Below are positions 7,000-28,197 of a DNA stretch of 64,000 nucleotides, in pieces; the first letter of the stretch is position 1, and each line of letters begins with the position of its first letter. The DNA is taken from the IMG/VR virus record IMGVR_UViG_3300045988_130745, one strand, 5' to 3'. Below the pieces are notes generated by a model. It had not been told where the DNA came from and did no database searches. It saw only the letters and a list, made by a program, of their open reading frames with translations. The stretch is from a virus. A program made the position numbers and the translations under genes.

Positions 7000-7404
7000 T
7001 TGATGCTCAAGGCTAGAATACAACTTAAAAAAGACACCAGCGAGGCTTGGCGCATCAATAATCCTGTTCTATTGGATGGCGAAGCTGGTTATGAATCAGA
7101 TACAAATTTAATGAAAGTTGGCGATGGGATTCATCGCTGGCTTGAATTAGACTATACAAACTCTGGTGCAACTGCGATAGCAAGTACAGCTAACTATGCT
7201 ATTAATGCTGGTGCGCTAGGCGGAACTTCTGCGGCTGATTGGGCTAAGAAGTTTGACAATTATGTTTTAAATACTCGAATTGAAGCCGTTATGTCAACTG
7301 CTTCAGCCGCGGACAAAATACCAACCTCAATAGCAGTTACTAATTGGGTTAAGTCGCAAAATTTCGCGGGTGCCGGTGATATTACTACTTGGGAGGACTT
7401 TTAA
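7000..7404 (+). CDS. tail fibre-associated protein
   Basis: Track ORF. The N-terminal IQLKKDTSEAW..NPVLLDGEAGYESDT..MKVGDG motif is common at phage fibre/hyaluronidase N-termini. Confidence 0.65.
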   Translation: MMLKARIQLKKDTSEAWRINNPVLLDGEAGYESDTNLMKVGDGIHRWLELDYTNSGATAIASTANYAINAGALGGTSAADWAKKFDNYVLNTRIEAVMSTASAADKIPTSIAVTNWVKSQNFAGAGDITTWEDF

Positions 7405-9650
7405 TGGCTAATAAATTATTAAAACCAAAGAGAGGTAGGGTAGAGAACCTGCCTAAATTGGCTGTTGAAGATGGCTCTCTTATTTTTGCTTATGATACCA
7501 AATCTCCCACTAGTACTGTTTTAGTTGATGTTGGAGAAACTAGATATGAATTATCTGCGGCGACGGCAAAGAAAGCAGATGATTCTAATGCTCTTGGCGG
7601 CAGTAGTCTTCAAAATATTGTTGACAAGATTGACAATGCGACGGGTGATGGAACTGCCTTTACTGGTTTAGATACTACTACTAATAATAAAGTAAAACTG
7701 ACAAGAGCCAATGGAACTACAGTTGAAAAAACAATTAATAATGTTTCTAATGCTTCGACTGCTGATTACGCAAAAGTAAGCAATAAAATTGGAACTGGGA
7801 CTATTGGTTCGTCAACTAAACCAGTTTATATTAATGCTGGTACCCCTACTGCGGTTAGCTCTATCCCATCTACTTTTGTTGCAGCATCGCAAATAAATGG
7901 TATTAATCTTGATACTTTGCGCACGCCAGGTATGTATTGGGCTGGTGGTGGCAATACTAATACTAATAAGCCCACGGGTATTGATGCTTTTGGTTTAGAA
8001 GTTCTTTAGAGTGCGGCCGGATGGTATACTCAAATTTGCTATGCTTCTGATGATTAGGAGAAACAATTCGTTCGTTATTATGATGCAGGAACAAAAGTTT
8101 GGAAAGATTGGGTTGAATAGAACCGTTTAAACACTAAAACTCAAAGTGGTTACGCCCCTGCACCGAATGCGGCAAATAAAGTTTATCGTACTGACGCGAG
8201 TGGCAATCCTGGTTGGGGCACATTAAACGACAGTTCTATTGGTAGACTTGCGTCTACTGTTACTTTTGGTGACGGTGGTCCTGCGGTAATTGATTAGAAT
8301 AATGAAACTTATCGCCAGCGTATCAATATTTTCGATAATGCAACAGCTAATGACGCGGTATTTAGTTTCTAGCAATCAACAGATGCCGGTAAGACCTATA
8401 AAGATTTATTTGCTATTAATGATAATGGTACTGTTATTGCTGGTACATTTCAAGGCGCACTTAAAGGAACAGCAGATTATTCAAAGAACTCTGGCGCTCT
8501 TGGTGGCAGTAGTTTAAAAAATATTATTGATAAAATTAATAGTTCTACTGGTGATGGTACCGCTTTTACTGGTTTAGATATAACTATAAACAATAAGGTT
8601 AAATTAACCAGAGCCAATGGTAGCACAGTTGAAAAGACAATCAATAATGTGTCTAATGCTTCAACTGCAAACTATGCTAATAGCGCGGCAAATGCTTCGA
8701 CAGCAGAGTATGCTAAAAGCGCACCACCAACCGTGAATTCTGTCAATTATGTCCGAGTTTATAATAGTTCCAATGTCGGTGGAAGCAATACTGTAACTGT
8801 CAATGATTTATCAAAGAAGCATTTTGCTCAAGGCATGATTAATTCTGCGACTGATAATCCATTAGGTAAAGCTGGCTGGGTTCATGTGCAAAGTATGGCT
8901 TGGGCAGATGGTAGTGATTAGTGGGCTTCTCAAATTGCTTTTGATGTTCAAAATGGTACTGGCGCTTACTATCGTTCTTCTAACGGCAGTGGACATTTAG
9001 CTGGACGTGACTGGAATAAATTCCTTGATAGTTCAAATTATACAGAATATGCTGCTGATAGAACTGCTCTTGTAAGCGCTTTGGCATCCAGCTCAAAAGT
9101 CACTTTTACAAGGGCAAATGCGGGAACATTTGCTATCAATATTAACTATGTAGAAAATGCTTCGACAGCAAATAATGCAAACAAGCTAGGCGGACTTCCA
9201 TCAAGTGAGTACGCCCTTAAAAGCCAATTAAGTGGTGATATTAATGCTTTGTCTGCTAAACGCTTGCCATCTTATCAATCAATCTCTGTAGCTAACTCTT
9301 TCTTCTATCGTTACGGTACAGCTGGTAATACTTCTGATGGCGGAGCTTGGACTGGATTTCCTTCAGCGATTCTCTACAATGCCGATTCAACTGTTAATGG
9401 CTTCGGCAATGCGCTTTTTCAAAAGAAAGTTGGTGTTCTTCACTTAGCAGCTGGTTCTTCTGCTCATGACCTTGTATTTCAAGCTGGAGGTACCAATGGC
9501 GGTATTGCTTATGTTGCAACTGGACGTAATCCCGCATACATTCTCGACACTCTTAACTACAAAGATAAAGCATATACATTTAACAAATTAACTGCAACCA
9601 GTACATTTACGGCAACTGGTGGCGTAGTTATTGACGGGGGAAGTTATTAA
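7404..9650 (+). CDS. large tail fibre protein with internal repeat modules
   Basis: ATG 7404 (RBS GGGAGGA). ORFs 7389..8009, 8649..8921 and 9081..9650 join in one frame across TAGs 8007, 8055, 8118, 8295, 8370 and 8919, checked codon by codon. Confidence 0.75.
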
Positions 9651-10453
9651 TGGCCTTACAATTAATGGGCGCAGCGCCTACGGCAAAAGAAATCGGAAGT
9701 TACTTGGACTTCCACGTGGACGCGAATAAAGGTGCGAAAGATTATGATGTAAGACTTCAAGCTAAAGATAGTGAACTTGATGTTATTGGTTCAAAAGGCG
9801 ATTCAAGTACTATCCTCAAAGTTGGTAGCAATTTTATGGCTTGGACAGATTCCGAAGGTGGTAATATTCGTATCTATTCTCCATCTCAAGCCTATTTTTA
9901 TGAGATGGATGCATATAATCATAGTTTAAGGATTGGTGGTAGAAAAGTAAGCAATGGTGCTTTTAAAAGTATTACACTTCTTGACACTGATGGCTATTCA
10001 ACTTTCAATCGCGCCTATAATGCTGTCTATAATGATTATGCTGAATTTTTCCCTCGTGGAGAAGACACAGAGCCTGGTGACATCATCGCTCTTGATGATT
10101 CTGTTGACCAAGAGCAATACGTTAAAGCCACTATTGATTCTTGTCGAGTCGTTGGAATTCATTCTAACGAATATGCTTTTTTAATTGGTGGTGAAAATCC
10201 ACCGGAAGGACAAGATTTTTACTCTTACAATATTTCTAAATATATCCCAGTTGGTTTAGCAGGACGTTGTAGAGTTAAAGTTCTCGGTCCCATTCGCAAA
10301 GGTTAGGATATAATTCCTACTTCTATCCCTGGTGTTGGACGTGCGTTTAATAAAGAAAAAGATAATCCGTCACTTCTTTATTTGTCTGTTGGTTTTGCTG
10401 TTGAAAACTCAACAGACGAGTCAATCAAATTAGTCCGCGTGAAATTAAAGTAA
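9650..10453 (+). CDS. tail fibre/appendage protein with possible C-terminal intramolecular-chaperone domain
   Basis: ORF 9650..10306 continues past TAG 10304 to TAA 10451-10453. DYAEFFPRGE...GIHS...PVGLAGRCRVKV resembles autoproteolytic chaperone domains of fibre/appendage proteins. Confidence 0.6.
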
Positions 10454-10464
10454 GGTGAAAATCA

Positions 10465-11403
10465 ATGGCTATTCAAATGAAACGCCAAGGTGGAGGGGTA
10501 TCGAATAATGCAACTGCGATTATTCCTACTGCTCTTGCTTATGGCGAAATTGGCATTGATAGTGCGGGTAATATTTATTGCGGCAATGGTAAAACTCAAG
10601 TTACCTCACAAGTTAAAAATGCCGCTAATGTTCTTTTTTTATATAAAGGGACCTATAAGAAAAACGGGTGGATTGAGAATAGCGTAAATAGTACTTGGTC
10701 TTAGACAGTTACAATTACCGCTCAAGATGGTGGTCCTGCAATTAAAGCAGATTTTACATTGTCTGCGCCCATGGCTGCGTAGACGGACAACCGTGAAACT
10801 AATGAGCAACGTCAAGATGCTCTTAGCGTAATTGCTGCAGGCAAATGTACTCCAAATGATAGCGGTCAAATCACTTGTTTGGTTTTTGAAAAACCATCAA
10901 TAGACCTTGATGTTTATTGGTATGCGCGATTGTCTGGCGGTTACGATTCAATGGTAGATGCACAAGGGGTCGGTTCTATTGTTGATTCTGCTGTAAATAA
11001 AGCAATAGATGATTTAAAATCAAATATTTCTTCTATTGTTGATAATGCAATTAATAGTAGTAATGTATATACTAAAATCAATGGTGTTTGTGCAGTTTAT
11101 CGCGCGAAGTATTTAGCTTCAGGTTGGATGGCAGTATCTTCCGATGGTTATAATTACTATCAAGAGGTAACTACTTCTAAGGTATCTGATGGTAGCGCCA
11201 ATTTGAATGCGTCAAGTATATTCTTGACTCCTGGCTTCTTCTTACCGAGTGGCACAGCATCAACTGATGCAGCTTATGCACAAGCAATGGGTATTATCAA
11301 TGATGGTTATTCAACAAGTGGTACAAATAGAATTATGACCTATACTACAGCTAAACCAATTAGCGATATATGGGTTTATTGGGTGGTTAGAGAAGCGGTA
11401 TGA
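10465..11403 (+). CDS. tail fibre-like protein
   Basis: ORFs 10465..10704 and 10879..11403 share a frame across TAGs 10702 and 10780. Confidence 0.65.
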
Positions 11404-11972
11404 TTTATGATGAATTAACTGGTGAAGTAATTGAGAATCCAGACCTTACAAAAGGCAAAGTTTATACTGAAGAAAAAGTTATTGGACGCAAAGAAGCTCA
11501 ACGGGTTCTTCTTGAAGGTAGTATAACTGACTTTGACCCAGAGGGCTGTTGGATGGAGATACCAGCCGAAGATATAACTGAGACTGTTGAAAAGTATCAC
11601 AAATATACCATCGACGAATTGATTGCATAGCAGCAAGCCGCGATTAAGCCAAATGATACTTCAATTTCTCAAGAAAAAAAACTTGAGCTGTTGCTTAATG
11701 CTATACCCACTGCCGCTTATCCAACCGAATCACCTAAGGTAGGCTATAAATGGTCTCCAATGTATAATAATGAAGCGGGATTTGGTTGGGAAATGGTAGC
11801 TGATCCAGACGCTTTTGGCACTCAAGAAAGACCTTTATATTGGAAAGAAGGTATGGAGGTTAAAGCTGGATACTATTATACAGATAAAAGTGAACGGCTG
11901 ATGCTTGCTGTTGAGAATGGAGTGCCTGATTATTTTGGTTAGTACACTTTTATGGAAGAAATGACTAGTTAA
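11400..11972 (+). CDS. hypothetical structural protein
   Basis: ORFs 11400..11630 and 11691..11942 share a frame across TAGs 11628 and 11940. Ends at TAA 11970-11972. Confidence 0.6.
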
Positions 11973-12001
11973 GAGGTATAAGTTTATGGGTACTTTATCT
12001 A

Positions 12002-12010
12002 GGGGGGGGG
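12002..12010 (+). repeat. G9 homopolymer tract
   Basis: Read directly: a + ggggggggg + ctac. Confidence 0.9.
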
Positions 12011-12066
12011 CTACAATGCCCTTACCTCGTTGTGTACATTTGGAAACGAACGGCTTAATCATTAGT

Positions 12067-12095
12067 TTGACTTTTCTTTCTATTGATGGTATAAT
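12067..12095 (+). promoter_or_regulatory. sigma70-like promoter upstream of cassette B
   Basis: TTGACT 12067-72, 17-nt spacer, TGG-extended TATAAT 12090-95. Confidence 0.55.
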
Positions 12096-12127
12096 AAAAT
12101 AGTAATTAAATATTGAGGGAGATAGTT

Positions 12128-12527
12128 ATGGGTAATATTCCAAGAACTACCCCCCCCCCCCGATACATCATTAAGTCTATCGGGAGTGGCGGCAGATTCT
12201 AAAATAGTTGGCGATTAGATTTCAAATTTAACATCATCTTTAGATACTAAATTTTTTTCATCTGAAATTCCTGCTAATTCGACTTTAACCTAGTCGTTTG
12301 ACAAATTACGTTATGGACATGGGCAATGCGGTTCTGTTTATCTGTCTGCATCAAATGGCGTGCCGGCTTCATGGTATTGGTATATTTACATACCTCATCG
12401 AGATGGTGGCAATGTTAGTGGCAGCGATAATATGCAATATGGTGTTTTAATCTTAATTGATTTTTGGTCAAATGCTTTTTATATCGCACGTTATACAAAT
12501 GGCACAATTAATGTCCGTTCAATTTAA
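12128..12527 (+). CDS. fibre-tip cassette B, interrupted at a C12 tract
   Basis: ATG 12128 (RBS GAGGGAG) gives MGNIPRTT(P)n. With 12 C the ATG frame stops at 12200. The long ORF (DTSLSLSGVAADSKIVGDQ... to TAA 12525-27, TAGs 12216 and 12291) is in frame only with 11 or 14 C. Confidence 0.55.
12150..12161 (+). repeat. C12 homopolymer tract
   Basis: Counted c12150-c12161. Confidence 0.85.
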
Positions 12528-12546
12528 ATATTAAGGAGAAATTTTT

Positions 12547-13097
12547 ATGGGGAGTATTCCTAGAGCTAATACCCCCCCCCCGTAATAGATAAAACTCTAT
12601 CGGTGGAGGGTGCAGTAGCAGAAAGTAAAGCGGTTGGTGACAAATTTAATTCAACAATTTTATCTTCGCCGTTATATAAATCAAAATTTGTTACCGGCTT
12701 AGGAATTTACAATTACAATTTTGGCCAACTTGCGACTAATGTAATTACAAAATATCAAGATGGTTCTTTTCTTGTTGAAATTACATTTGTAGGACATTAG
12801 CATAGCATTAGCTCAAATTCAGCTTTTGATTGGCTAAGCGGCAATGGCTTAACAGAAGACGCAAAAAGTCTAACTGGTAAAAGCAATTATAAACCAACAG
12901 CTAATTGTTTCCCCCTATTGGGCAAAGGAGTAATTCCTGCCGAAGAAGGATATAGTCCTTATGTTAGATTAACTGGAATTAATGGACATCTAAGAGTTGG
13001 ACGTATTTATGAAGCAACTGCCAATCTAGGTGATTACCAGAACTCTGTATAGCACACTGGTAATTATAGTTTTAGAATTACTTTAATTCTTTATTAA
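12547..13097 (+). CDS. fibre-tip cassette C, interrupted at a C10 tract
   Basis: ATG 12547 (RBS AAGGAG) gives MGSIPRANT(P)n. With 10 C the ATG frame hits TAA 12583. The ORF VIDKTLSVEGAVAESKAVGDK... (contains track ORF 12603..12800, TAGs 12798 and 13050, TAA 13095-97) needs 11 or 8 C. Confidence 0.55.
12572..12581 (+). repeat. C10 homopolymer tract
   Basis: Counted c12572-c12581. Confidence 0.85.
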
Positions 13098-13119
13098 TTA
13101 TATAAAATTCTTAATGTTA

Positions 13120-13150
13120 GTGCTCTCCATATTGGAGGGCACTTTTATTT
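13120..13150 (+). terminator. Rho-independent terminator
   Basis: GTGCTCTCCA/TGGAGGGCAC stem followed by TTTTATTTT. Confidence 0.7.
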
Positions 13151-13182
13151 TAGAACAAAATTTTTTATAGGAGGAAATCGCA

Positions 13183-15540
13183 ATGGATATACTCCTTTTC
13201 GGAACTCTCCGAAAATATATCGACGATACTCTTCAAGGCATGGGTGCGCTCAAAGGCGAAAAAGGCGATCGTGGAGAAAAAGGTGCCCAAGGTCCAAAAG
13301 GCGATAAAGGCGACAAGGGAGACAAAGGCGCACAAGGACTTCGCGGTATTCAAGGCTTAACTGGTGCCACTGGCGCGAAAGGCGAACGTGGCGCTCAAGG
13401 TATCCAAGGTTTAACCGGCCCCCAAGGTATCCCTGGCGTGCAAGGCATCCAAGGTCCAAAAGGCGAGAAAGGTGACAAAGGTGAAACCGGTCCCGTTGGT
13501 AAACGCGGTGTCCCTGGAGTTAATTACAACATTAAATACTTCTTGTCTACTCTTAATGAATTAAATGCCATCACTCCTGTTACCGGTTATGACGAAGCTA
13601 TTTTCGCTTATGTTGCTGAGAATAAATCAATCTATTATTCTTATGAAAGTTCTCCTTGGGCTTTCTTTGCAGATGCGTCTAATCTTTAGTTTGCGCGCGG
13701 AGAGCAAGGTGAGCAAGGTCCTCAAGGTGAGAAAGGTGATAAAGGTGACCAAGGCATTCAAGGCATCCAAGGACCGCAAGGTATCCAAGGGCCTCAAGGT
13801 CTTCAGGGCATCCAAGGAGGTAAAGGAGATAAAGGCGACAAAGGCGACAAAGGCGACCCTCTCACTTGGAATGAAGTTCCAGCAGCTGCGCGCAAAGAAC
13901 TTAAAGGTGAGAAAGGCGACAAAGGCGACACTGGTGATTCTGGTGTTTATTATGGTCCAACTGAGCCAGAAATTGACCAAGAAAAACTCGTTTGGATTGA
14001 TTCATCAGTAGAAGAATCGGCTACCACAATTGATATTGCCAACATTCCTGGACTTCAAAAAGAACTTGATTCTAAAGTTCAACTCCCAGCCAAAATTGAA
14101 AATGATACTCAATTATTTCCCGTTGTAACTTCAAAAGGTACGTCATGGGTCACTCTTGAAGAAACTGTCAACGGAATTGTTAGTGAATGTGTAAATATCA
14201 TCGTGCGTGGCACAGACAATGCGACTCTTAAAGGCACTGAAATTTATCTTCACGATGTAACAACTGACACTATATCTACTTTTGAATGGAATGGAACCAG
14301 TTTGACTATTTATGTTTTAAATGGACACAAATATTTTATCAGTGGCGCTGAAGTTGAAGGATATGAGCCTGCCGCGGATAGTTTACAATATATTGCGCGA
14401 GCTGCATAGACTCGTACAATCACTTTATCTTATCCGCGCTCAGAAGAAGCAGAATATGGCATCCGATTTTTAATTGAATCATCAGATCCATCATGTGAGC
14501 GTGTAGTAGTCAAAAATAATATTACAACTTATGGCGAAGATACGGGTTTGGTGGCTGCTATTGGTACCAAACTCACTATGCCTAAAAACAGTTTTGACGA
14601 CATCTATCCTTGGTCAGATATTCGCATTGTAACTGATTCTGATAATGCTGCCGAGGCTGCGCAAACGATGGTTAAAATTCCAAAATATTATGTCAAGGTC
14701 ACTGTTGATGATACCTATGAAACTTGGATGATTAGTCGTTATAAAAAAGCAGGATACCGTGTCGCAAAAATGTTTGCTCGTCCTGATGGAACCGAAGCAG
14801 ACTATTATGAATATGCCCGTTACGAGACCAGTGACACTAATCGTTCTCAAACTGGCGTCACTCCTCAAAGTTCAACCACTATTGAAGCATTTAGAACTGC
14901 CGCTCTTGGATTAGGTGATAATTGGCATCCAGCTGGACTTGCAGATCGAACTGATGGACTTCAGATGCTAATGACTATTGAATTTGCTACTCGCAACATT
15001 CAGTCAATAGCAGAAGGTTTGGTTAATTCTAAAACCGTTTCTGATTGCGGTTTGACCGATGGTTTAACTATTACCGAAGATTCAAAGGGCATTAAGCCTT
15101 ATTCTGGTATTGTTAAAAATGCTTTTTCTTATCGTGGAATTGAAAACCCTTACGGTAATTTACTTGAATATGCTGATGGTATTATTTTAAACAATTCTCG
15201 TGTGTACTATTGCGACGATTGGACTCGTTGGAGTAATTCAATCAATTCAAGTTACGTTCAAGCCGTTGGTACTATTCCAACTTTAAGCGGATTTATTACT
15301 AAATTGAATTATAATGAAGCTAATCCTTGGATGCGTTTGCCTAGCGAAGTAGTCACTACTGGCGATAGCGATAGTAATTATGGCGACTATTATAATGCTC
15401 CAACCGCAGATTATACCTTGCCAGTTTATGGCGGTGGTTATTCTACCAATTTGCGTGCGGGCTTATTCCACTGGAATTGTACTCGTACTTTTAATGAAAC
15501 AAATAGAGACATTGGTTCTCGTTTGGCTCGTAGTTTTTAA
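13183..15540 (+). CDS. collagen-like tail fibre protein
   Basis: ORFs 13183..13689, 14203..14409 and 14548..15540 share a frame across TAGs 13687 and 14407. Two blocks of Gly-X-Y repeats ([19 protein letters not shown]...). Confidence 0.8.
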
Positions 15541-15543
15541 GAG

Positions 15544-15876
15544 GTGATTGAAATGAGAATATCAAAAGCAACAAGCGAAATTCGCCCTCAAGATATTATT
15601 GAGCAATTATCAGCTAATCGTTTTTCTTGTCGCATTTGCGCGGACATTATTGAAACTGATAATGGTTTTGATTTCACTAGCTATCGTGATTCATTTAGCG
15701 CATCTTCTTATCCAGAATTACTTGTGAATATTATTCACACTCGTTATACCTATGACGATGAAAACAATTTTATCAATGATTATATCGCAGAAGGCATGAC
15801 TAAAAAATATCAAGACTACCGCGATTTTGTTGCTTGGGCTAAATCCCAAGCAAAATCTTATTTTAAGGAGGACTAA
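15544..15876 (+). CDS. hypothetical protein
   Basis: Track ORF immediately after the fibre gene. Start is GTG 15544 or ATG 15553. Confidence 0.6.
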   Translation: MIEMRISKATSEIRPQDIIEQLSANRFSCRICADIIETDNGFDFTSYRDSFSASSYPELLVNIIHTRYTYDDENNFINDYIAEGMTKKYQDYRDFVAWAKSQAKSYFKED

Positions 15877-15879
15877 CCT

Positions 15880-16539
15880 ATGCCTATAATGCAGCTATAT
15901 GATAAAAATACAAGCACTTGGCAAGAAGTTCCTGCCTTAAAAGGTAGTGCCGCGAAAGTAGAAGTTGGCACAGTAAAAACAGTGCCAGCCGCGGGACAAG
16001 CAAAAGTAACTAATGTTGGTACAAATACTAATGCAATTTTTGATTTTTAGCTTCCTCGTGGTATGGATGGTATTACTCCTATTCGCGGTACTGATTACTG
16101 GACGGCTGCAGACCAATAGCAAATCGTTAAGGATGTTTCTGATAAAATGAATTATCAGTTTACAGATTTAATGAATGCTATTCAAAATAAACCAGTCACT
16201 TACATTTTTGATGATAAGGCTTCTCTTGATGGCGCGCTCAATCTAACTAATAACACAGTTACCTATAATGAAAAAGTATGTAAGCTAAATCCTGGTGATG
16301 TATTTCTTTTGGTTTCAATTAACGAACCAGATTATTGGTTTGGCGAGGATTCCAATGGTGAGAAACTCCATGAACTTGATGCACGAAAAATGGAATTAAC
16401 TGAATATGTTAAATCAAGTCAATTTCAAGTGATGAATATTGATGCTTATAATGCTATTGCTACAAAAGATCCAAATACATTTTATTTCATCATTGAAAAA
16501 TCAGACCCGACTTCAAGCGATGGGGAGGCAACAATCTAA
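15880..16539 (+). CDS. tail fibre-like protein
   Basis: ATG 15880 (RBS AAGGAGG) is in frame with ORF 16147..16539 across TAGs 16048 and 16117. Contains LPRGMDGITPIRGTDYWTAAD. Confidence 0.65.
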
Positions 16540-17372
16540 TGCCTATCTTCATTAATAACAAGCGAGTTTAGCTCATTTACAAAGGCGAAACTCCTATTGA
16601 AGAAATCCACGCTCAAAACGCAACTATTTGGACTCCAAAAGCAGATTTCGCCACGGCTTCATGGGCTGAAATTAAAAAGTGGATTGAAAAGGGCACTTGG
16701 AAAGAATAGAATTGGAGCGAAGGAGACGCTCATACTATTCATATGAAGGATGGCCATATTCTCACTGCTCGAATTCTTGCAATATATGATGGCCGTGAGG
16801 AAAAAGCAACTTACAAAGGTCAAATTGATAGAGATGAAAATAATGTAAAACCGCACATGGTTCTTGAACTAACTACTTGTTTACCAGATTTTTATTCTAT
16901 CAATCTAGAGCCAGAAGTAGAAAATACTCCTCAATCTTGGGGCACTTCAAATCTTTACAAGCTAATGTCTCCTGGTGGCGAAATATATGACAATCTGCCA
17001 AATGAACTTCAATCAATGATTATCCCGGTAATGAAAAAATCTGGTATTAGTGGCAAGGTTCAAAATTCAACTCCTGAAACCACTAAGTCCTATCTTTTCC
17101 CGCTCTCAATTCGAGAGTATGTCGCAAAAGACAATATTACAAGTGAAATTAATAACAGCGAGGGTTCTCAATATCAATATTATATTGATCATCCTGGCTA
17201 TGTTACTAAAAAAGAATATGCTGGCGATAAAAATATCGTCTATTACACTCGTTCCGCAATGCAAGCTGAAAATGAACTTTATGAATATTTTTGGGCTATT
17301 GGCGGTGCGAATAACTATGCAACTTATCCATCCTATATTAGTTTAGGGACAAGTTTTGCATTTTGTATTTAA
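16539..17372 (+). CDS. hypothetical structural protein
   Basis: ATG 16539 overlaps the upstream stop. In frame with ORF 16743..17372 across TAGs 16569 and 16707. Confidence 0.65.
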
Positions 17373-17913: not shown

Positions 17914-18231
17914 ATGGACATAATTACACTTGCGTTGACTCGTAAGGCAGTTAGAGATGCTCACGTTGACCATATAGGACCACAAGGACCGGTTGGACCG
18001 AAAGGTGAGAAAGGCGATAAAGGTGACCCATTTACTTGGAACGATCTCACTGCGGAGCAAAAGAAAGAATTAACTGGTCCAAAAGGTGATAAAGGCGATA
18101 CAGGTGGAGTTGGCTATGTCTCTTTTGAGAGTGGCAACGATGGACACTTGTACGCCGTTATTGCCGAAGGGACTGATGAAATCAGTTTCAGAATTTCCGA
18201 TGATGGTAAGCTGGAGGTAATCTACGCATGA
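17914..18231 (+). CDS. short collagen-like protein
   Basis: Track ORF containing [17 protein letters not shown] and [11 protein letters not shown] triplets. Confidence 0.7.
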
Positions 18232-20651
18232 GTAAAAGAATAGATTTAGGCGCAGTAACCGCTTACGCCATTGCAGTTAAAAATGGATTTGAAGGCACAG
18301 AAGTAGCCTGGCTTGCAAGTCTTAAAGGTGCAAAGGGCGACAGGGGTGAAAAAGGCGAGCAAGGCGCGCCAGGTATTTAGGGAGAAAGAGGAGCAACTGG
18401 TGAAACTGGCCCTATTGGCCCTCAAGGTATCCAAGGACCAAGAGGTGCTCAAGGTGAGAAAGGAGATACTGGCAATGTCGGCCCAGCTGGTCCTCAAGGA
18501 CTAAAAGGCGAAACTGGTGCAGTTGGACCAGCTGGGCCGCAAGGTAAGCAAGGCATCCAAGGTGAAAAAGGTGAAACTGGTGCTGCAGGCGCCCGAGGTG
18601 AACAAGGTCCGCAAGGTATTCAAGGCATTCAAGGTCCAAAAGGCGAGAAAGGCGATCCTTTCAGTATAAAGAAAATTTATGTTTCTGTTGCTGCAATGAA
18701 TGCTGATTTTGACGGTACTGATACTTCTACTGGTGATTTTGTTCTTATTAACACTGGCAATGTTGCAGATGAAGATAATGCAAAGCTCTATGTAAAAGGC
18801 GAGAGTGCTTTTACTTTTGTCACTGATTTGTCCGGCGCGGCTGGTATACAAGGTCCGCAAGGTCCTCAAGGAGTGCAGGGTGTTCAAGGAGAACAAGGTA
18901 TTCCGGGTGTAAAGGGTGACAAAGGTGATCCAGGCTCTGATGCAACTGTCACTACTGATAATATCACCTCTGCTCTTGGCTATACTCCCGCAGATTCAAC
19001 CAAAGTTTACACTAAAACTGAAGTTGACGGAATGATTGATGGTGTTTATGCTCAAGCCGTTCGCAATGCGACTTCTGTTGCTCAAGTCAACGGCTTGTTC
19101 CAAGAGTGGTGGAAGAAAAATTGGGTTGAAGATACCTCCACCCACACTCAAATGCTTGAGCGTTGGTTTGGAAATGTTCTTACCAGTAGCAAGGTTTATG
19201 GTACCAAGCTACCTTTGTTTGCTACTTCAAATAGTGCAAATGGCGAGTATATTGACGATTCTGTTGGCATGACTTGCACTCCTTCAACTAACGCAGTTCT
19301 TGGTCAAGATGACTTCGCATTCAAGCCAGAGTTCTGGTGCATCGAAGCATCTGGTGAGCATAATTCTGACGGTTCAATTACTATCTATGCTGTTGAATTA
19401 ATTGATGACATTGCTACCGTTCGTTCTGGCGAGCATTTGACTTGGGTTCTTCAAAAGAATACTTATTGGCATGAATATACCAGTGAAGGTTATCATTTCG
19501 TCGAACTCAAATCAACTCCTGATGAAACTTGGCATCGTTGGCCGCAAGGTACATCAAAAGATGGTACAGTTCATGAGTTTATTGCTAACCCGAAGTATTA
19601 TGCCGGAATGAAAGATGGAACTATTACTGTTGGCACTAATCTTCCTGCAATTAATTTTACTTCTCATCAATCTGGCGTTGCTCTATGGCGCAAGCGTGGC
19701 AGTCAATACTCTGGCGCGAGTGGCAACCTTATCAAGTTCCTTGATATTATGATGAAGTTAAAGTATGCTAAGAAAGGTAACTCTGGGACTATTGAAGGTT
19801 GTTCAAACTATAACTGGCAATATACTACTCCTGTTGGCGAGACAGGCGTAGAACGTATTATTGTTACTACCGCGCAGGGTGCAAATATTAAAGTTGGCTC
19901 AACTGTTATTATTGGTAAGAAAGGCGGCTCTACCGATCGTGGCGATAGTGCTATGAGAAGCCTTGTTTCAATGAAGAAAGTCAAAAGTTTGGAGCCAGTC
20001 ACTATTGATGATACTTCTTATACAGCCGTTAATATTGATAATGGCGGAACAACTTTTGATACAGTTGCGAGTGAGACAATGATTTCTTCTATGCCTTATC
20101 ACTCTGGATACAATGACAACGTATTAGGTTATGATGGCAGTGCAACTAATTACACCAATGGTTCTGAACCTGGTTTGCTCCAGAAGATTGAGTTCCAGAA
20201 TGGTGCTTATCTGATTATTTCAGATGAATTGTGGCAATGGAGCAAAGATGATACAAACTATATGTTTGATTGCTATACTTGCCATGATTAGTCAAAAGTT
20301 ACTACTAATGGAACAATTTCTTCTGACTATACAAAGCAAGCTGATTTGACTTTGAAGTGGGCAGTTGAGGGTGCTAATACAAGTTGGCACTGGGAATATA
20401 TTGAAGATACTGCAATCGCTAATGATCCAGCAGTTTGCTGGCCAGCTAAAGTATCCACGACAGCTGGTAGCGGAACTGGTTGTAAAGCTGGCTTCGGCGT
20501 CGCTTTGGCGTCGTCTGGTGTGCGTGCTGGTTGGTGTTTCTGCGGTTTGTGGGGTGGCGGTCTTTGTGGTGTTTCAGCTCGTAACTCGGACGTTTCTCCT
20601 TCGTATTCTGGCTGGTACGGGGCGCTCGGCGGTCCAGGTCTTGCGGGGTGA
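18228..20651 (+). CDS. DGR target: collagen-like tail fibre with C-terminal variable domain
   Basis: ATG 18228 is in frame with ORFs 18696..20291 and 20346..20651 across TAGs 18378 and 20289. Gly-X-Y repeats near the N-terminus. The last ~50 codons are the VR ([33 protein letters not shown]...). Confidence 0.85.
20489..20635 (+). repeat. DGR variable repeat (VR)
   Basis: 147 bp alignable without gaps to 20992-21138 (offset 503). 19 mismatches, every one at a TR adenine. Confidence 0.9.
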
Positions 20652-20690
20652 ATCGAAGCCTAGGAGCACGAAGTGCGGATAGGCAAGAGA

Positions 20691-20706
20691 GGGGACGCAA
20701 GTCCCC
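20691..20706 (+). promoter_or_regulatory. GC hairpin downstream of VR (candidate DGR target-recognition element)
   Basis: GGGGAC-GCAA-GTCCCC: 6-bp GC stem with a GNRA-type loop, 40 nt after the target stop. Confidence 0.5.
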
Positions 20707-20991
20707 GTTATAATGGAAACGACCCATCCGTGCGATACGCCCGACTGTTGACTCGATCTCAATTGAATGCAGCAATAGCATGATTTAATTGAACCATTAA
20801 CTTTCAAGTCTTGTTTCATACGAAACCGAGATAGATTCAATGACTTTACCGCCATTCAAGAATCTATATAACCTAGAATAAAATTCCAAGGATACGATTC
20901 AAAGTTTAGGGAAGGATTTCTCTACTACAAAATCCTCCATTCAGTTCTTTCGGCGCTTAACGAAAGTAGGGACGTATTCCGTTGGCAGATT

Positions 20992-21138
20992 TGGCTTCAA
21001 CGTCAATTTGGCGTCGTCTGGTGTGCGTGCTGGTTGGTGTTTCTACAATTTGTAGAATGGCGGTAATTGTGGTGTTTCAGCTCGTAACTCGAACAATTCT
21101 CCTTCGAATTCTAACTGGAACGGGGCGCTCGGCGGTCC
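20992..21138 (+). repeat. DGR template repeat (TR)
   Basis: Invariant copy with 25 adenines, 19 of them substituted in VR. AAC/AAT codons are phased with VR codons. Confidence 0.9.
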
Positions 21139-21141
21139 TAG

Positions 21142-21245
21142 CCGGTCTTGCTTGCGGAGCAGTTTTACAACAATAATGCGGATTACGTTCCTAGACTTAT
21201 TTAGTTGAAATTGCTCCTGCGTAGTCAAGACCGGCTTATTTTTTT
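21142..21245 (+). promoter_or_regulatory. extended stem immediately 3' of TR, followed by a T-run
   Basis: CCGGTCTTG (21142-50) pairs with CAAGACCGG (21226-34). GGAGCA (21156-61) pairs with TGCTCC (21212-17). CTTATTTTTTT follows. Confidence 0.5.
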
Positions 21246-21336
21246 ATTCAGAAAAGAATAAGCTTAACCGCGTCTAGTAGCTTCGGCGAAAGTCGCACGG
21301 GGAGACCGGCCAAAGGACTAATAAGGAGGGCTACTT

Positions 21337-22644
21337 ATAAAGACTTTTTGTAAGCCCGCAAATACTAATATATGCGATCCAGAGTTTATTTACTGGGCGG
21401 TTTATGATTGTGTTAAGCATAAACTTTATCGTAATGATTTTCTTGATTTATTATGTACTCAAACAGGTATATCTCGCCGCGTAGTGATAAAGGAGCGTTC
21501 ACAATTAAATGAATCAACTCCTATGATTGACGGCGCAATCAAGAAATTATCTGAAAAATGCGCTCAAATGATTGCTGATAACAAACTTAAATTTAGAGAA
21601 CTTCGTCAATTCAATCGAGTTGATGGTATTTCTGGAAAGAAAAGAGATATTTGTCAAGAATCTCCTCTCCAGCAAGTATTTGAATACATCGCGGTTTACG
21701 CACTTCAACCACTTTTTGATGCTAAAATTTTATATTGCCAATTTGGCAGTATCCCAGGTAAGGGACAAGTCAAGGGCGCGCAAAGAATTTCATATATTCT
21801 CAATAGTCCAAAGTTCAAAGACAAACGAGTGGACTGTATTAAATGTGACGTCCGCAAGGCTTATCCATCAACAAAAGTAAGCACTGTTCATAATCTTATC
21901 ACTAAATATTGCGGTAAGAATAAATAGTTAATTGGTTTAGTTGATGCTATCATGGCAAACTACCCTAATCACCATTTAATTATTGGTGGCTACTTTTCCA
22001 CTTGGACATTTAATTTAGTAATGAGTGAAGTTTTGCGTGAGTTTAATAAACTTTATAAAGAGCGCCGTGGACAGCGAATTAAACTGGTCGAAAAAATTGT
22101 TTGCTATGCAGATGATTTTCTCTTGTTTGGATACAAGTCCAATTTGGAGCGTGCGATTAAGACAGTTGCTAAACGTATTAAAGCACAATTTGGTTTAGAA
22201 ATCAAAAATGTCTGGACGATAATTCAATTCCCATCTAAAGAGGTTGAAAACCATCCTCGCTATAAAAATACTTTTATTGATATGATGGGTTTCAGAATTT
22301 ATCGCCATTACCGTGGCATCCGCAAGAAAATTTTTCGCAGAGCGCGTAGACAATTTATCCGTGCAAATCAACTCTCTTATGTACCTGTTTGGAGAGCGCG
22401 AAAAGTTGCGGCATATAATAGCTGGCTTACATATTCTAAAAGTCGTGGAGTAATCCTCAATTATCATATAAATACCCTAATGAATCGTTCGAAGCAATCC
22501 ATATCTAATCATTCTAGGGAGGAATTGACAAGTTATGAAAGAGACTTATTGCTCTATCCCGAAAGCTGTTTTGACTTTCCCCGTTGGCGGAAAAACCGAC
22601 GTTATTTTGAGGAAAAATATCGAAAAAGTCACCAAACAGGGTAA
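21337..22644 (+). CDS. DGR reverse transcriptase
   Basis: ORFs 21484..21927 and 21952..22644 share a frame across TAG 21925. The frame stays open upstream to TAA 21322, and TAAGGAGGG RBS lies at 21321-30, so the start is uncertain (no ATG; ATA 21337 or GTG 21484). Motifs IPGKGQ and VCYADDFLLFG (YxDD). Confidence 0.8.
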
Positions 22645-22888
22645 TTCGGAAGAAGAAACCTATGATGCTTACGAGTGCGACGAAGTTCAATTCCGTTATG
22701 ATGGCGCGCTGACAGTAGAAGAAGTTGAAAATGATTTTGACTCTTGGTGGAATTATCCAGCCAAGGCTTCTATGACTCTTGACGAGCGTGTCTCCGCACT
22801 TGAAAATTCAAAAGCAGATAAATCAGATGTAGAACAAATTTACGATGCTATTGCTGCAGCCTATCAAGAAGGAGTGCAATCAGTATGA
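22535..22888 (+). CDS. hypothetical acidic protein
   Basis: Track ORF with AGGGAGGA RBS. Overlaps the 3' end of the RT frame by ~110 nt. Confidence 0.6.
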   Translation: MKETYCSIPKAVLTFPVGGKTDVILRKNIEKVTKQGNSEEETYDAYECDEVQFRYDGALTVEEVENDFDSWWNYPAKASMTLDERVSALENSKADKSDVEQIYDAIAAAYQEGVQSV

Positions 22889-23322
22889 CAAGTAAAGATT
22901 TTATTTTGAATACTTTCCGCGCGAAAGGCAAAGCAGATGCTCAAGCACTTCAAAAGCAAGCAAAAAATTTAACTGGTACTGAAATTATTGCCAATGAAGG
23001 ATGTATTCCCGAATGGGAACCTAATAAGGATTATTCTTCTTGGTTAGTTGGCGCGCCAGTTAAGTATGACGAACAAGTATGGATTTTATTGGTTCCTCAT
23101 ACTGTTTCAGCAATTTCACCAAAAGAAGATCGTGAAAATTGGTCATTGTGCCATACAACAGATGCCTTCGCTGCAAAGAAATGGGTAGCTCCTGTTGGCA
23201 GCTATGGACACTACATGAAAGATGAAGTTTACGTTGATGATAATGGCTTCATCTGGAAATGCTTACAAGATGACACAATTCTTTCTGCGGCCGACTATGC
23301 TGATGCTTGGATTGAAGTTTGA
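22885..23322 (+). CDS. hypothetical protein, possible carbohydrate-binding repeats
   Basis: Track ORF with ATGA overlap. Two W/Y-rich segments (WEPNKDYSSWLVGAPVKYDEQVW; FIWKCLQDD..ADYADAW) resemble CBM5/12-type motifs. Confidence 0.55.
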   Translation: MTSKDFILNTFRAKGKADAQALQKQAKNLTGTEIIANEGCIPEWEPNKDYSSWLVGAPVKYDEQVWILLVPHTVSAISPKEDRENWSLCHTTDAFAAKKWVAPVGSYGHYMKDEVYVDDNGFIWKCLQDDTILSAADYADAWIEV

Positions 23323-23330
23323 CATATATT

Positions 23331-23359
23331 GGGTTGGAAGAAATTCCAGCCCATTTTTT
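23331..23359 (+). terminator. Rho-independent terminator ending the structural block
   Basis: GGGTTGGA/TCCAGCCC stem followed by ATTTTTT. Confidence 0.7.
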
Positions 23360-23362
23360 GTA

Positions 23363-23391
23363 TTGACTCCCGCACAAAGATATGATATAAT
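23363..23391 (+). promoter_or_regulatory. conserved promoter module P1
   Basis: TTGACT 23363-68, 17-nt spacer, TGA-extended TATAAT 23386-91, then ATTTATAGAAAGT. Confidence 0.75.
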
Positions 23392-23418
23392 ATTTATAGA
23401 AAGTTAAGGAGAATGATT

Positions 23419-23718
23419 ATGACAAAGTTTAAAATTTATGCTGGTTTGAAGCGCCCTTATGCGCCATTGCATTTAGTTGATGAAAAAGAATTTTTGACTA
23501 ATCGAGAAGCAAAATGGTATGCTCGTGAGTGCGCGAGAAAGATTTATCGCGATCATGAACCTTATGATTCTGCTCTTGTGACTAAAGAAGAAATTCGTGA
23601 GCATCCAACTGATTTTGGCATTTATCCTTTGGAAGAGGAAGATTTCTTTGAGTCCGATGTTGAGCTTGAGTATCTTCACGCAATGGATAATTGGTTGCTT
23701 TTTGATGTGGAATTTTAA
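23419..23718 (+). CDS. hypothetical protein
   Basis: ATG 23419 lies 7 nt after AAGGAG, inside track ORF 23413..23718. Confidence 0.65.
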   Translation: MTKFKIYAGLKRPYAPLHLVDEKEFLTNREAKWYARECARKIYRDHEPYDSALVTKEEIREHPTDFGIYPLEEEDFFESDVELEYLHAMDNWLLFDVEF

Positions 23719-23727
23719 TTATTCCTA

Positions 23728-23756
23728 TTGACTTTTTAAGATATATATGATATAAT
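23728..23756 (+). promoter_or_regulatory. conserved promoter module P2
   Basis: TTGACT 23728-33, 17 nt, TGA TATAAT 23751-56, then ATATATAGAAAAT. Confidence 0.75.
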
Positions 23757-23789
23757 ATATATAGAAAATCAAGAGAGGAAGAATGAGTA

Positions 23790-24098
23790 TTGGGTTTTGA
23801 TTTTGTTATCTACGATTATGAGAATCAAAAAACTATTTGTCATGTTGAAGGGTACGATATATCCGATATTAAAGAAATTTTTATTTGGATTGTAGCTGGT
23901 GATGAAACTGGCAGTCTAACAATGCAAGATGGCACTGTTTATGATTTTGATGCCTCGGATAATCGTTTTGCAGATTTTAATGATGGCTCCTATACTGTTG
24001 AAGGGAAGGAAAACATCGAGAAGTGGCTTAATTTTCAACCGACTGAAAAGGAGTCTCATCTCACTTTTTCTTATGTGCGCCAAGGGAAATGGGGTTAA
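23790..24098 (+). CDS. hypothetical protein
   Basis: Track ORF with TTG start after AGAGGAAG. Confidence 0.55.
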   Translation: MGFDFVIYDYENQKTICHVEGYDISDIKEIFIWIVAGDETGSLTMQDGTVYDFDASDNRFADFNDGSYTVEGKENIEKWLNFQPTEKESHLTFSYVRQGKWG

Positions 24099-24307
24099 TA
24101 TCAATGTGGCTTGTTCGTTATAAAGCAAAAGCAGATACTAGCTGGGCGACTTTCATTTCCAATGCCGCTTTGATGAATTTTGCTGCACAGGATTTTATTG
24201 ATTACTGGTTTAAACGGCATGATAAAATTCCGCCGCAGATTAAAGATTTTCACGAAGCTCGAAAAATTATGTGGAATGAAGGTATAGATTTTTATATTAC
24301 CTTGTAA
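24089..24307 (+). CDS. hypothetical protein
   Basis: Track ORF. Alternative start is ATG 24104. Confidence 0.55.
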   Translation: MGLISMWLVRYKAKADTSWATFISNAALMNFAAQDFIDYWFKRHDKIPPQIKDFHEARKIMWNEGIDFYITL

Positions 24308-24322
24308 GAAAGGAAGATTATT

Positions 24323-24772
24323 TTGATTGTTTCTGAGATTGAAATGAATATGAAAGCCGCGCTGAAACAGGATAGAATGGAAGATAAGAATGATTATTCT
24401 TATCTTTTATCTCGCTTTCGCGCGAAAGAAGTTGAGCTTCGCCGTGAATTGACTAATGACGAAGCTATCGACGTTATCCGCAAGGAAGTCAAACAGATGC
24501 AGAAAGATTATGACGCAATGTCTGGCGATTTGCTCAACACTCATTATGCTAAGGGCTTGAAGCGTCAGATTGACCTTTATTCCATCTACTTGCCTAAAAT
24601 GATGTCTTATGATGAGGTTTTGGATTATCTGCGTGGAATGGATGCTGAGTGTATGCTCCCAACTGCTTTTGGCGCAGCGATGAAAGCTGTTCGCGCGGAG
24701 ATTGGCGCAAAAGCAGATGGTAAGACCATCTCTCAGGCGTTGAAAAATTATATGGCTCAGGAGAAAAAGTAA
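24323..24772 (+). CDS. GatB/YqeY-domain protein
   Basis: Track ORF. The pattern KAALKQD...LSRFRAKEVEL..LTNDEAIDVIRKEVKQMQKDYD...IYLPKMMSYDEV matches the YqeY/GatB C-terminal domain layout. Confidence 0.6.
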   Translation: MIVSEIEMNMKAALKQDRMEDKNDYSYLLSRFRAKEVELRRELTNDEAIDVIRKEVKQMQKDYDAMSGDLLNTHYAKGLKRQIDLYSIYLPKMMSYDEVLDYLRGMDAECMLPTAFGAAMKAVRAEIGAKADGKTISQALKNYMAQEKK

Positions 24773-25075
24773 ATGAAGATTTTTAGAATGAAACGTGGAG
24801 AAGGCAAAACCTCTCGTCTGATCGAGGAGAGCGCAAATTCTGGCGTTCCTATTTTTGCTATTGATGACCATCGGCGACGTATTCTGATGGAAAAGGCAAA
24901 TGTGATGGGTTATAAGATTCCTTCGCCTGTTACTTTTGATGACCTTGCTGCGGATAAGACAATTGAAAAAATCATTGTAGACGATGCAGAATATACTTTG
25001 CCTGCTATCATTGAGTATTTCCTTGGTATCCACATTACAGCCGAAGCTTTTTCTACTAACACTCTTGAAGATTAA
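24773..25075 (+). CDS. hypothetical protein
   Basis: Track ORF starting directly after the upstream stop. Confidence 0.6.
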   Translation: MKIFRMKRGEGKTSRLIEESANSGVPIFAIDDHRRRILMEKANVMGYKIPSPVTFDDLAADKTIEKIIVDDAEYTLPAIIEYFLGIHITAEAFSTNTLED

Positions 25076-25104
25076 TTGACTTTAGAACGATTTTATGCTA
25101 TAAT
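25076..25104 (+). promoter_or_regulatory. conserved promoter module P3
   Basis: TTGACT 25076-81, 17 nt, TGC TATAAT 25099-25104, then ATTTATAGAAAGT. Confidence 0.75.
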
Positions 25105-25137
25105 ATTTATAGAAAGTTAAGAAAGGATATTTAAATT

Positions 25138-25668
25138 ATGACTAAGTTTATTCCTGCTGTTCCTCGTTTGACCGCTAAGCGTGACGGCGACATCGCTTAT
25201 CACAAGCCGAGTTTTTCGTATTACATTGACCGAGATAAAACTGGATGTATCAATGGTCAGCTGTATCATGGCGTCGTAGTCGCTAAGCTGAGTGGCGGTG
25301 TTCGCGATCTGGTAAATATTTGGACTAAGCGTGACGCTTTTAGGATTTGTGAGCTAGGGGAGATTGCCTCTCTACTCCATGTTAATTCCGACCTTGGTCC
25401 TGCTTATTGCGTGTTTGAGGGCAAGGCTTACTGTTCGGTTGATGATAAGTGGGACGAGAACGAGGGTATGAAGATTGCTCGTCGCAAGGCTTGGACTCAG
25501 TATTACCATGCTCTGGCAAATTATACCTATGATTATCAGAAGCGTGTCGCTGCGCTGTATGAGCAGATTACCAAGTATGCTGATTTTGCGGTAAAGCGCA
25601 GTTGCGAGCTAGATATGGAGAATACTGAAGTCCAGAAGATGCTTGAAGGAATGTCGGAAACTGTTTAA
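25138..25668 (+). CDS. hypothetical protein
   Basis: Track ORF downstream of P3 with a GAAAGGA RBS region. Confidence 0.65.
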   Translation: MTKFIPAVPRLTAKRDGDIAYHKPSFSYYIDRDKTGCINGQLYHGVVVAKLSGGVRDLVNIWTKRDAFRICELGEIASLLHVNSDLGPAYCVFEGKAYCSVDDKWDENEGMKIARRKAWTQYYHALANYTYDYQKRVAALYEQITKYADFAVKRSCELDMENTEVQKMLEGMSETV

Positions 25669-25697
25669 TTGACTTTTTCTAAAAATTGTGATATAAT
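25669..25697 (+). promoter_or_regulatory. conserved promoter module P4 (drives tRNA island 1)
   Basis: TTGACT 25669-74, 17 nt, TGA TATAAT 25692-97, then ATTTATAGAGT. Confidence 0.7.
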
Positions 25698-25778
25698 ATT
25701 TATAGAGTTTGGGAATTGATTCCTACTCTTTTTATACATACCTCTTTCTTTTAGGGAGAAGCAATTCTCCCTTTATAT

Positions 25779-25862
25779 GCGACTGTGGCCCAGTGGACAA
25801 AGGCGGGTGCCTGCAAAGCACTTAATTTTTTATCGTTGGTTCAAATCCAACCAGTCGCTCCA
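25779..25862 (+). tRNA. tRNA, anticodon read as GCA (Cys), unusually long variable region
   Basis: Acceptor GCGACTG/CAGTCGC, anticodon arm GGTGC-CTGCAAA-GCACT, T arm GTTGG-TTCAAAT-CCAAC, encoded CCA. 12-13 nt lie between the anticodon and T arms. Confidence 0.6.
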
Positions 25863-25874
25863 AGGAGTTTTGCT

Positions 25875-28196: not shown

Positions 28197-28197
28197 T

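Follow-up and report, generated by a model that had tools for sequence, protein, structure and literature searches.

What is the function of long G and C homopolymers placed just inside the start codons of neighbouring phage genes? The DNA analysed here, referred to below as the window, is the 64,000-nucleotide (nt) stretch of IMG/VR virus record IMGVR_UViG_3300045988_130745. Three tandem units at 11986–13097, cassettes A, B and C, each carry such a tract; they lie on the + strand, as do the promoter, the terminator, the flanking genes and the retroelement described below. The phage has a genome of ~180 kb, comes from the human gut and reads TAG as glutamine. Our best explanation, which we hold with considerable confidence, is slipped-strand phase variation: the cassettes form a simple-sequence-repeat contingency locus for accessory tail modules. 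In the window, B and C are both off, and the array of A-type genes is deleted.

The tracts are a run of nine G in cassette A (G9, 12002–12010), 12 C in cassette B (C12, 12150–12161) and ten C in cassette C (C10, 12572–12581). They are the sole G or C runs of at least 6 in the 64,000 bases; under an independent-base model the expected counts are 0.045 for G9, 0.0005 for C10 and 0.00001 for C12. The tracts of A, B and C begin 16, 22 and 25 nt past the ATG, respectively, and each ATG has a good ribosome-binding site (AAGAGG in A, GAGGGAG in B and AAGGAG in C). In cassette B, the ribosome-binding site, the ATG at 12128 and a 22-nt leader (MGNIPRT.) occupy 12115–12149. The C12 tract is out of frame, and the ATG frame encodes the 24 amino acids MGNIPRTTPPPRYIIKSIGSGGRF before a stop codon. 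The body of B lies in the +1 frame (12162–12527): 121 codons, including two in-frame TAG, run from GAT at 12162 to TAA at 12525–12527, and encode an N-terminal motif, DTSLSLSGVAADSKIVGDQ, followed by a beta-rich C-terminal domain. Cassette C has the same plan. Its ribosome-binding site, ATG (12547) and 25-nt leader (MGSIPRAN.) occupy 12533–12571, the C10 tract is out of frame, and the ATG frame ends after the 12 amino acids MGSIPRANTPPP. The body of C lies in the +2 frame (12582–13097), from GTA at 12582 to TAA at 13095–13097; its 171 codons, again with two in-frame TAG, encode the N-terminal motif VIDKTLSVEGAVAESKAVGDK and a C-terminal domain unrelated to that of B.

For both B and C, tract lengths of 8, 11 and 14 join leader and body in one frame. 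The initial annotation placed the tracts and cassettes correctly to the base. It was also right that neither B nor C is in frame with its ATG, and the in-frame lengths that it predicted (11 or 14 for B, 11 or 8 for C) are lengths seen in nature. Could the bodies instead be translated from starts of their own? Upstream of either tract, no ATG, GTG or TTG with a ribosome-binding site was found in the body frame. We therefore rejected independent starts, the more so as natural in-frame alleles use the leader ATG. Indeed, public protein collections contain the exact in-frame products of the window's cassettes: P0037 (from C11) and P0040 (from C8) for cassette C, of 183 and 182 amino acids, and P0196 for cassette B, of 132 amino acids. 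Peptides such as ANTPPPVIDK and TTPPPDTSLSLSGVAADSK would bridge the leader, the poly-Pro run and the motif. In-frame alleles at exactly the predicted lengths, together with the exact products, indicate that leader and body are one gene.

The evidence that carries our interpretation is natural variation in tract length between nearly identical genomes. The window and three human-gut assemblies, L024 (ERZ28568041), L031 (ERR636409) and L049 (ERR636410), differ by 0–1 substitutions over 8.5–9.4 kb, and all the differences fall within the poly-C tracts of cassettes B and C. The window has C12 in B (off) and C10 in C (off). L024 has C12 in B (off) and C11 in C (on), and L031 has C12 in B (off) and C8 in C (on). 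In L049, the B tract is CCCCCCCTCCC, 11 nt long and interrupted (on), and the C tract is C10 (off). ERR636409 and ERR636410 are neighbouring runs of one project; their B and C states are reciprocal, and the one substitution between them over 8.5 kb lies inside the B tract. Across six window-type loci, all small indels are confined to the three tracts. Furthermore, 11 loci share the window's C allele without a single difference over 513 nt, and among them the tract is C8 or C11 (in frame) or C10 (out of frame). Tract lengths thus differ on identical backgrounds, both in frame and out, and this variation directly supports the DNA-level slipped-strand mechanism, one of those that the initial annotation had proposed. 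We consider it likely that the tracts act as DNA-level switches.

Tract lengths also vary more widely among relatives. We compared 41 non-duplicate related loci, some retrieved through the upstream gene at 11400–11972, and hence blind to cassette state, and others through cassette proteins. Tracts on the C leader are in frame as C8 (five loci) and C11 (seven loci), and out of frame as C10 (three loci) and C12 (two loci); C12 occurs on this leader only with a different C-terminal domain. The window-type B tract is in frame in its interrupted 11-nt form (L049) and out of frame as C9, C12 and C13. For cassettes B′, A2 and B0, the in-frame tracts are C14; G8 and the interrupted GGGTGGGG; and C4 and C10, respectively, and the out-of-frame tracts are C9 and C13; G9, G11 and GGGTGGGGG; and C5, C6, C9 and C11. 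Interrupted tracts that lock a gene on are frequent (CCCGTCCCCC, C7TC3 and GGGTGGGG), and MGNIPKNYPSPVIDK.. is a further example.

Might these lengths be sequencing or assembly artefacts, each true tract having a single in-frame length? Long G/C homopolymers are error-prone on all platforms, and three public contigs end at a tract: L017 and L029 start at a poly-C tract at position 1, and L034 at position 5. Such breaks are expected if tract length is mixed within a sample. Artefact is nonetheless extremely improbable. The C8 and C11 alleles come from five and seven independent assemblies, and the 3-nt gap between them is beyond consensus error. Similar ranges are seen elsewhere, in the B tract (C9, C12, C13) and the A2 tract (G8, G9, G11), and tracts are present across assemblers, as judged from SPAdes (“NODE”), MEGAHIT (“k127”/“k141”) and Logan naming styles. 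In addition, the interrupted variants represent real sequence evolution at the site.

Among loci fetched blind to cassette state, 8 of 24 tracts are in frame, which is the one-in-three random expectation; on and off states therefore look unselected in the consensus. A random third in frame would also be expected if the cassettes were decaying pseudogenes, dispensable genes in which slippage-prone homopolymers vary neutrally and nothing is switched. Decay does occur: B0 cassettes of L006–L010 have shortened tracts, internal frameshifts or a leader stop codon, cassette A of the window is a remnant, and L003 is without a B/C cassette. However, the B and C open reading frames are under purifying selection. 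Pairwise ratios of nonsynonymous to synonymous substitution rates (dN/dS) are 0.05–0.13 for the C family, at a dS of ~0.3, and 0.10–0.19 for the B family, at a dS of 0.4–0.6; lineages whose consensus is off are included. Out-of-frame alleles keep open reading frames of 121–177 codons free of TAA and TGA, and the ribosome-binding sites, promoter and terminator are conserved. Moreover, the 486 kb of non-duplicate related sequence contain 74 G/C runs of at least 7, every one of them in a cassette leader; away from the 5ʹ ends of these genes there are none. We regard general decay as highly improbable. Purifying selection combined with one-in-three states fits a fast switch whose consensus state drifts, in genes that are used often enough to be retained.

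The locus as a whole is a variable array of small genes encoding proteins of 130–240 amino acids, and includes a promoter-to-terminator slot that holds 0–5 B/C cassettes. The cassettes share a single strand in every locus. Judging from context and domain matches, the array genes presumably encode accessory tail proteins. The slot opens with the sigma-70-type promoter noted in the initial annotation (12067–12095; TTGACT, a 17-nt spacer and TG-TATAAT), which matches 11 of 12 consensus positions and has a TG extended −10. It is kept with no more than 3 substitutions in 36 of 36 non-duplicate loci covering the site, in addition to the window. The slot closes with an intrinsic terminator (13119–13152; an 11-bp stem, then a T-run), kept in 38 loci with compensatory stem changes (GCTCTCC/GGAGAGC versus GCCTTCC/GGAAGGC). 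In L003 (11057–11163), the slot is empty: the terminator comes immediately after the promoter, without an intervening B/C cassette, which indicates that the cassettes are dispensable.

Proteins of the B/C type share a leader, MG(Q/N/S/Y)IP.., a Pro run encoded by poly-C and a 20-amino-acid motif, D-x-x-L-x-x-x-G-x-A-A-D-x-K-x-V-G-D. Behind these N-terminal elements are at least 8 unrelated C-terminal domains, and the same C-terminal domain can follow different leaders (P0020/P0031; P0023/P0033; P0001/P0003/P0032), which indicates that bodies are shuffled by recombination. In L005, a B-type leader is fused to a C body through the interrupted, in-frame CCCGTCCCCC tract. Is the leader, tract and motif, then, mainly a homology joint for body exchange, with switching as a by-product? 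Identical domains behind different leaders, the L005 fusion and the A remnant, which arose by recombination between short homologous stretches, are all consistent with this possibility. However, a homopolymer is not needed for recombination, and tracts vary on identical backgrounds without exchange of the flanks. We consider it quite unlikely that body exchange is the main role of these elements; such a role is compatible with phase variation rather than exclusive of it. Switching by an invertase was considered and rejected: inverted repeats are short and imperfect, there is no recombinase-like open reading frame at 9.6–16.5 kb, and the cassettes lie on one strand throughout.

Cassette A differs from B and C. 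The initial annotation treated it as a third unit of the same kind, and rightly reported that it has no long open reading frame in any frame; comparison with L004, L016 and L018, which carry a full A, A2 and A3 array, shows that it is instead the deletion remnant of a gp10_C-type cassette (11986–12058; ATG at 11986). Of such a cassette, the remnant has retained the leader MGTLSR, the G tract and the initial codons (..LQCPYLV), fused to the last ~10 codons (..PYLVVYIWKRTA, then a stop) of A3, the last gp10_C cassette of the array. The join falls in a short stretch of homology. Some 24 codons remain, the Gp10_C domain is lost, and the ..PYLVVYIWKRTA end is in another frame. The G tract of the remnant is G8, G9 or G10 in window-type genomes. 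Since the remnant is functionless and its tract still varies in length, tract mutability appears to be intrinsic.

In relatives, type A comprises zero to four genes (A, A1b, A2 and A3) of 150–170 amino acids in the upstream part of the array. Their leaders, MGTLSR, MASLAR or MSATSRM, are followed by a poly-G tract, A3 being the exception. Full-length A, A2 and A3 match PF21939 (Gp10_C) with E-values of 1e-13 to 1e-21 and 52–78 bits, against a cut-off of 27, and full-length type A proteins also match T4 gp10 structures; cassette A of the window does not reach the PF21939 gathering score. On the strength of these matches, type A products are predicted to be gp10_C-like, a baseplate or short-fibre type of domain. 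The complementarity of the G9 tract to the C tracts, to which the initial annotation drew attention, has no conserved geometry in relatives. We rejected a role for the G9/C12 pairing (18 nt, 83%) since the A tracts of relatives lie from 134 nt to several kb from the B/C tracts. With a promoter between the A and B/C tracts and a variable distance separating them, a shared transcript is unlikely, and the complementarity is probably incidental.

What do cassettes B and C encode? A profile of their shared motif, which matches the window at 12162–12218 and 12588–12644, finds 3357 cluster representatives, and a single protein can carry as many as 11 copies (proteins P0048–P0195). We also observed that a repeat of the form D-x-T-L-x-x-x-G-x-A-A-D-A-K-x-x-G-D is very widespread in large modular proteins and seemingly has no Pfam or PHROG model. 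No names are on record for the motif-bearing proteins; some of the large ones also have CBM_5_12, GDSL esterase, BspA-type leucine-rich-repeat or tail-fibre PHROG domains. Pro often precedes the motif, which makes the poly-C tract look like the expansion of a native Pro codon. A tblastn search of GenBank phages with the N-terminal module gave no match. The AlphaFold2 model of cassette B has a mean confidence (predicted local distance difference test, pLDDT) of 69, with block means of ~64–91 in the C-terminal domain, from about residue 50. Its best Foldseek neighbours are the phi812 baseplate, the R2 pyocin fibre and tail-fibre/baseplate proteins, all of them weak (E of at least 0.006), such that the modelled fold assignment for B is suggestive. 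Their context within the tail module, their modular design, the motif shared with tail-fibre-like proteins and these weak fold matches suggest that B and C may be receptor-binding tips. For the cassette products in general, we lean slightly towards host-binding parts of the virion.

Several observations weigh against the interpretation of the locus as a set of switchable host-binding modules. Cassettes B and C match no Pfam or PHROG family, and a PDB sequence search with a B0 cassette gave no match even at an E-value of 10. No Foldseek match for B in PDB or BFVD falls below an E-value of 0.001, and the AlphaFold2 model of cassette C (pLDDT 38, from a 9-sequence alignment) was unusable and was discarded. 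Heterogeneity within populations and reversibility are deduced from differences between assemblies, and the consensus lengths of 12–14-nt tracts in short-read assemblies may be off by one. Lastly, none of the 9 assemblies that were not selected for its state has the window-type B tract in frame (P = 0.026 under the one-in-three expectation), which hints at a bias towards the off state or at another route of expression.

One such route would be programmed slippage of RNA polymerase or the ribosome. If this were the main means of expression, tract length would tune a ratio, and “off” alleles would yield a fixed minority of full-length product. The purifying selection on B, despite its off state in all nine assemblies, is consistent with this possibility, and a run of 10–14 identical C or G would presumably let tRNA-Pro or tRNA-Gly re-pair in any frame. 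Shifting by +1 at CCC-N is established, and stalling on poly-Pro could assist. However, the offset is not constant: it is +1 nt for C10 and −1 nt for C12 on the C leader, and −1 nt for C12 and +1 nt for C13 in cassette B. Tract length is not conserved, as a programmed site would require, and in-frame and interrupted alleles are common. The conserved slippery length and constant offset across homologues that characterize programmed frameshifting are therefore absent, and we consider it unlikely that slippage is the main mechanism. As an added leak, it may explain the persistent off state of B. A further proposal, which we also view as improbable, is that slippage sets dosage alongside DNA-level switching, with RNA polymerase or a stalled ribosome decoding poly-C and poly-G by programmed slippage. 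If so, each infected cell would make a tract-length-dependent minority of “off” tips, giving mosaic virions, and purifying selection on B would be explained despite a consensus that is out of frame nearly everywhere. Host range would then have four layers: slippage dosage, DNA phase variation, cassette shuffling and a diversity-generating retroelement (DGR).

How would phase variation operate at this locus? The tracts have the properties of contingency loci: they are mononucleotide runs of at least ~7 in the 5ʹ part of the coding sequence, their length is polymorphic among near-identical genomes, and length toggles between a full-length frame and a truncated one, off lengths stopping after 12–24 codons. 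Translation would begin at the strong ribosome-binding site and ATG and reach the homopolymer after 5–8 codons. Where the combined length of leader and tract is divisible by three, translation would yield the full protein, with a Pro or Gly linker; any other length would stop the ribosome within 1–13 codons. We regard these two outcomes as demonstrated by the alleles themselves. Replication slippage on a tract of 8–14 nt would alter its length far faster than substitutions accumulate, as is documented at the population level; the reversibility and rate of the switch are presumed. Progeny would be a mixture of on and off combinations. We propose that switched-on proteins become part of the baseplate or the fibres, where they serve as alternative or additional modules for host binding, and that the population hedges its bets on host surface variants, alongside the DGR and recombinational body swapping.

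The DGR noted in the initial annotation (20489–22644) is real, and it is separate from the cassette switch. Its variable repeat (20489–20635) is at the 3ʹ end of the second collagen-like fibre gene (18210–20651), 7 kb downstream of the cassette locus, and is followed by the template repeat (20992–21138) and the reverse transcriptase gene (21325–22644). The repeats are 147 nt long and 87% identical, with 19 of 19 mismatches at template adenines. The cassettes are not DGR targets; the sole pair of variable and template repeats (20489–20635 and 20992–21138) lies in another gene.

The cassette locus sits between two genes. Downstream is a collagen-like tail fibre gene (13183–15540; 785 amino acids), with a Pfam Collagen match at 6e-24 and matches to PHROG tail and tail-fibre families down to 5e-56. 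Upstream is a conserved gene of 190 amino acids (11400–11972), with 88–95% identity in 21 of 22 fetched loci and 57% in one; it has four in-frame TAG codons and closes only when TAG is read as glutamine. It had been called a fibre gene, a description that is not borne out: it has no detectable Pfam family, and its sole PHROG match is weak. A megablast search of GenBank phages with 7000–17000 gave no match. Further upstream, the fibre gene at 7380–9650 (757 amino acids) contains an internal 212-nt direct repeat (7563–7774 and 8469–8680; 76% identity), and a 54-nt in-frame indel close to its start varies among relatives.

Relatives of the window are contigs of 175–183 kb from human-gut metagenomes. 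The translation of TAG as glutamine, adopted without comment in the initial annotation, proved correct. Only when TAG is treated as a sense codon do the stop-to-stop open reading frames of the structural region join up, giving long, tightly packed structural genes at 262–22644 and 36046–41763, and public protein predictions of the same genes have glutamine at the TAG positions. In-frame TAG is almost absent from the early regions (22800–36000 and 44000–60000). A suppressor tRNA with a CUA anticodon was not found in the 64-kb window by ARAGORN and Rfam. Each program called 14 tRNAs, 13 of them in common, giving 15 tRNA genes. The tRNA at 42279–42351, which is Glu-UUC-like, was called by Rfam only; the one at 43391–43467, to which ARAGORN gave no anticodon, has a fold that points to an Arg-CCU-like tRNA whose anticodon stem is bulged.

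Three further observations concern other parts of the window. First, at least 12 near-identical promoter-plus-leader elements (ATTGACTTTT .. TATG(A/C)TATAAT .. TTATAGAAAATGAG) precede early genes between 23341 and 53018, for example at 23721, 28378, 31268, 33628, 41396, 45396, 48464, 51324 and 52943. The promoter of the cassette slot (12067) is of the same type as this early family, yet lies in the late, TAG-containing region. Second, GIY-YIG-like motifs (GIYKITN..) occur in paralogous segments at 25890–26113 and 28815–29059 and at the C-terminus of the open reading frame at 600–1670, which points to several homing-endonuclease genes interspersed with the tRNA genes. Third, two adjacent open reading frames at 36576–41406 have radical-SAM-like CxxxCxxC motifs (CNLNCNYCC and CNQSCSYCY) and are followed by one of 599 amino acids. 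All three carry in-frame TAG and lie outside the structural module; from their motifs, they may form a peptide-modification cluster.

How does this locus compare with known systems? The closest is that of Fletchervirus phages of Campylobacter, whose receptor-binding proteins are phase-variable through polyG tracts (Sorensen et al. 2021, Cell Rep 35:109214, as cited in PMC8713573 and PMC10579305). As these citing papers present it, Fletchervirus likewise has several tail genes, some with hypermutable G/C homopolymers whose length switches translation, and switching in these lytic phages yields a phenotypically mixed population. In contrast, the cassettes described here are small (130–240 amino acids), separately initiated and set in a promoter-to-terminator slot; their homopolymers, poly-G in some and poly-C in others, invariably fall within the first 9 codons; and the phage reads TAG as glutamine, comes from the human gut and also has a DGR. 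With the locus or the N-terminal module as query, the GenBank phage collection yielded no match, and no sequence relationship to the Fletchervirus proteins came to light, their sequences not being among those compared. The type of switch has thus already been described for Fletchervirus, and is new in an uncultured lineage of gut phages that reads TAG as glutamine. What sets the present case apart is the array of short, separately initiated cassettes in a slot, the use of poly-G or poly-C according to protein family, and the presence of a DGR and cassette shuffling alongside.

Bacterial contingency loci with polyG or polyC tracts occur in surface genes of Campylobacter, Neisseria and Haemophilus (PMC4965091, PMC11868660). 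The phage cassettes resemble them in having a 5ʹ tract with lengths of 7–14, one frame in three on, and truncated off products; they differ in being viral and in governing presumed virion components rather than enzymes that modify the cell surface. In T2 and T4, the contingency loci agt and rIIA serve evasion of host defences, in a study that counted repeats of at least 6 bases and found that the tail-fibre genes of coliphages have fewer of them than expected (Gomez, Barrick and Waters 2025, preprint, PMC12633550). Common to both cases is a form of bet-hedging in which the polymerase slips on short repeats within phage genes. In the phage described here, however, the repeats occur only in tail accessory genes, the opposite of the coliphage tail-fibre trend.

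Phages can also choose between tail modules by other means. The G segment of Mu (acted on by Gin) and the C segment of P1 (acted on by Cin) are invertible tail-fibre segments. As in Mu and P1, alternative C-terminal modules, here with a presumed role in host recognition, lie side by side, and a heritable DNA change chooses between them. In contrast to Mu and P1, there is no invertase gene and there are no significant flanking inverted repeats; the choice is made by reading frame, and several modules or none can be on. DGRs of the Bordetella phage BPP-1 type share the presumed purpose of diversifying host recognition, but the cassette mechanism is unrelated and the cassettes have no template repeat. 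Lastly, the type A cassettes of relatives match the C-terminal domain of T4 gp10 (PF21939; PDB 2fkk), but are free-standing proteins of 150–170 amino acids rather than the end of a 602-amino-acid wedge protein.

What is the significance of these switches for the phage and its relatives? Cassette genes of this kind are missed or truncated in annotation because of the frameshift and the TAG codons. The locus provides a clean example from natural populations, in which tract length alone separates genomes that are otherwise identical over 8.5 kb, and the claim is testable on public read sets. In this phage, homopolymer switches coexist with a DGR and with modular exchange of cassettes. A mechanism shown by experiment only for Campylobacter phages would, if the tracts act as we propose, extend to an abundant, uncultured lineage of the human gut.

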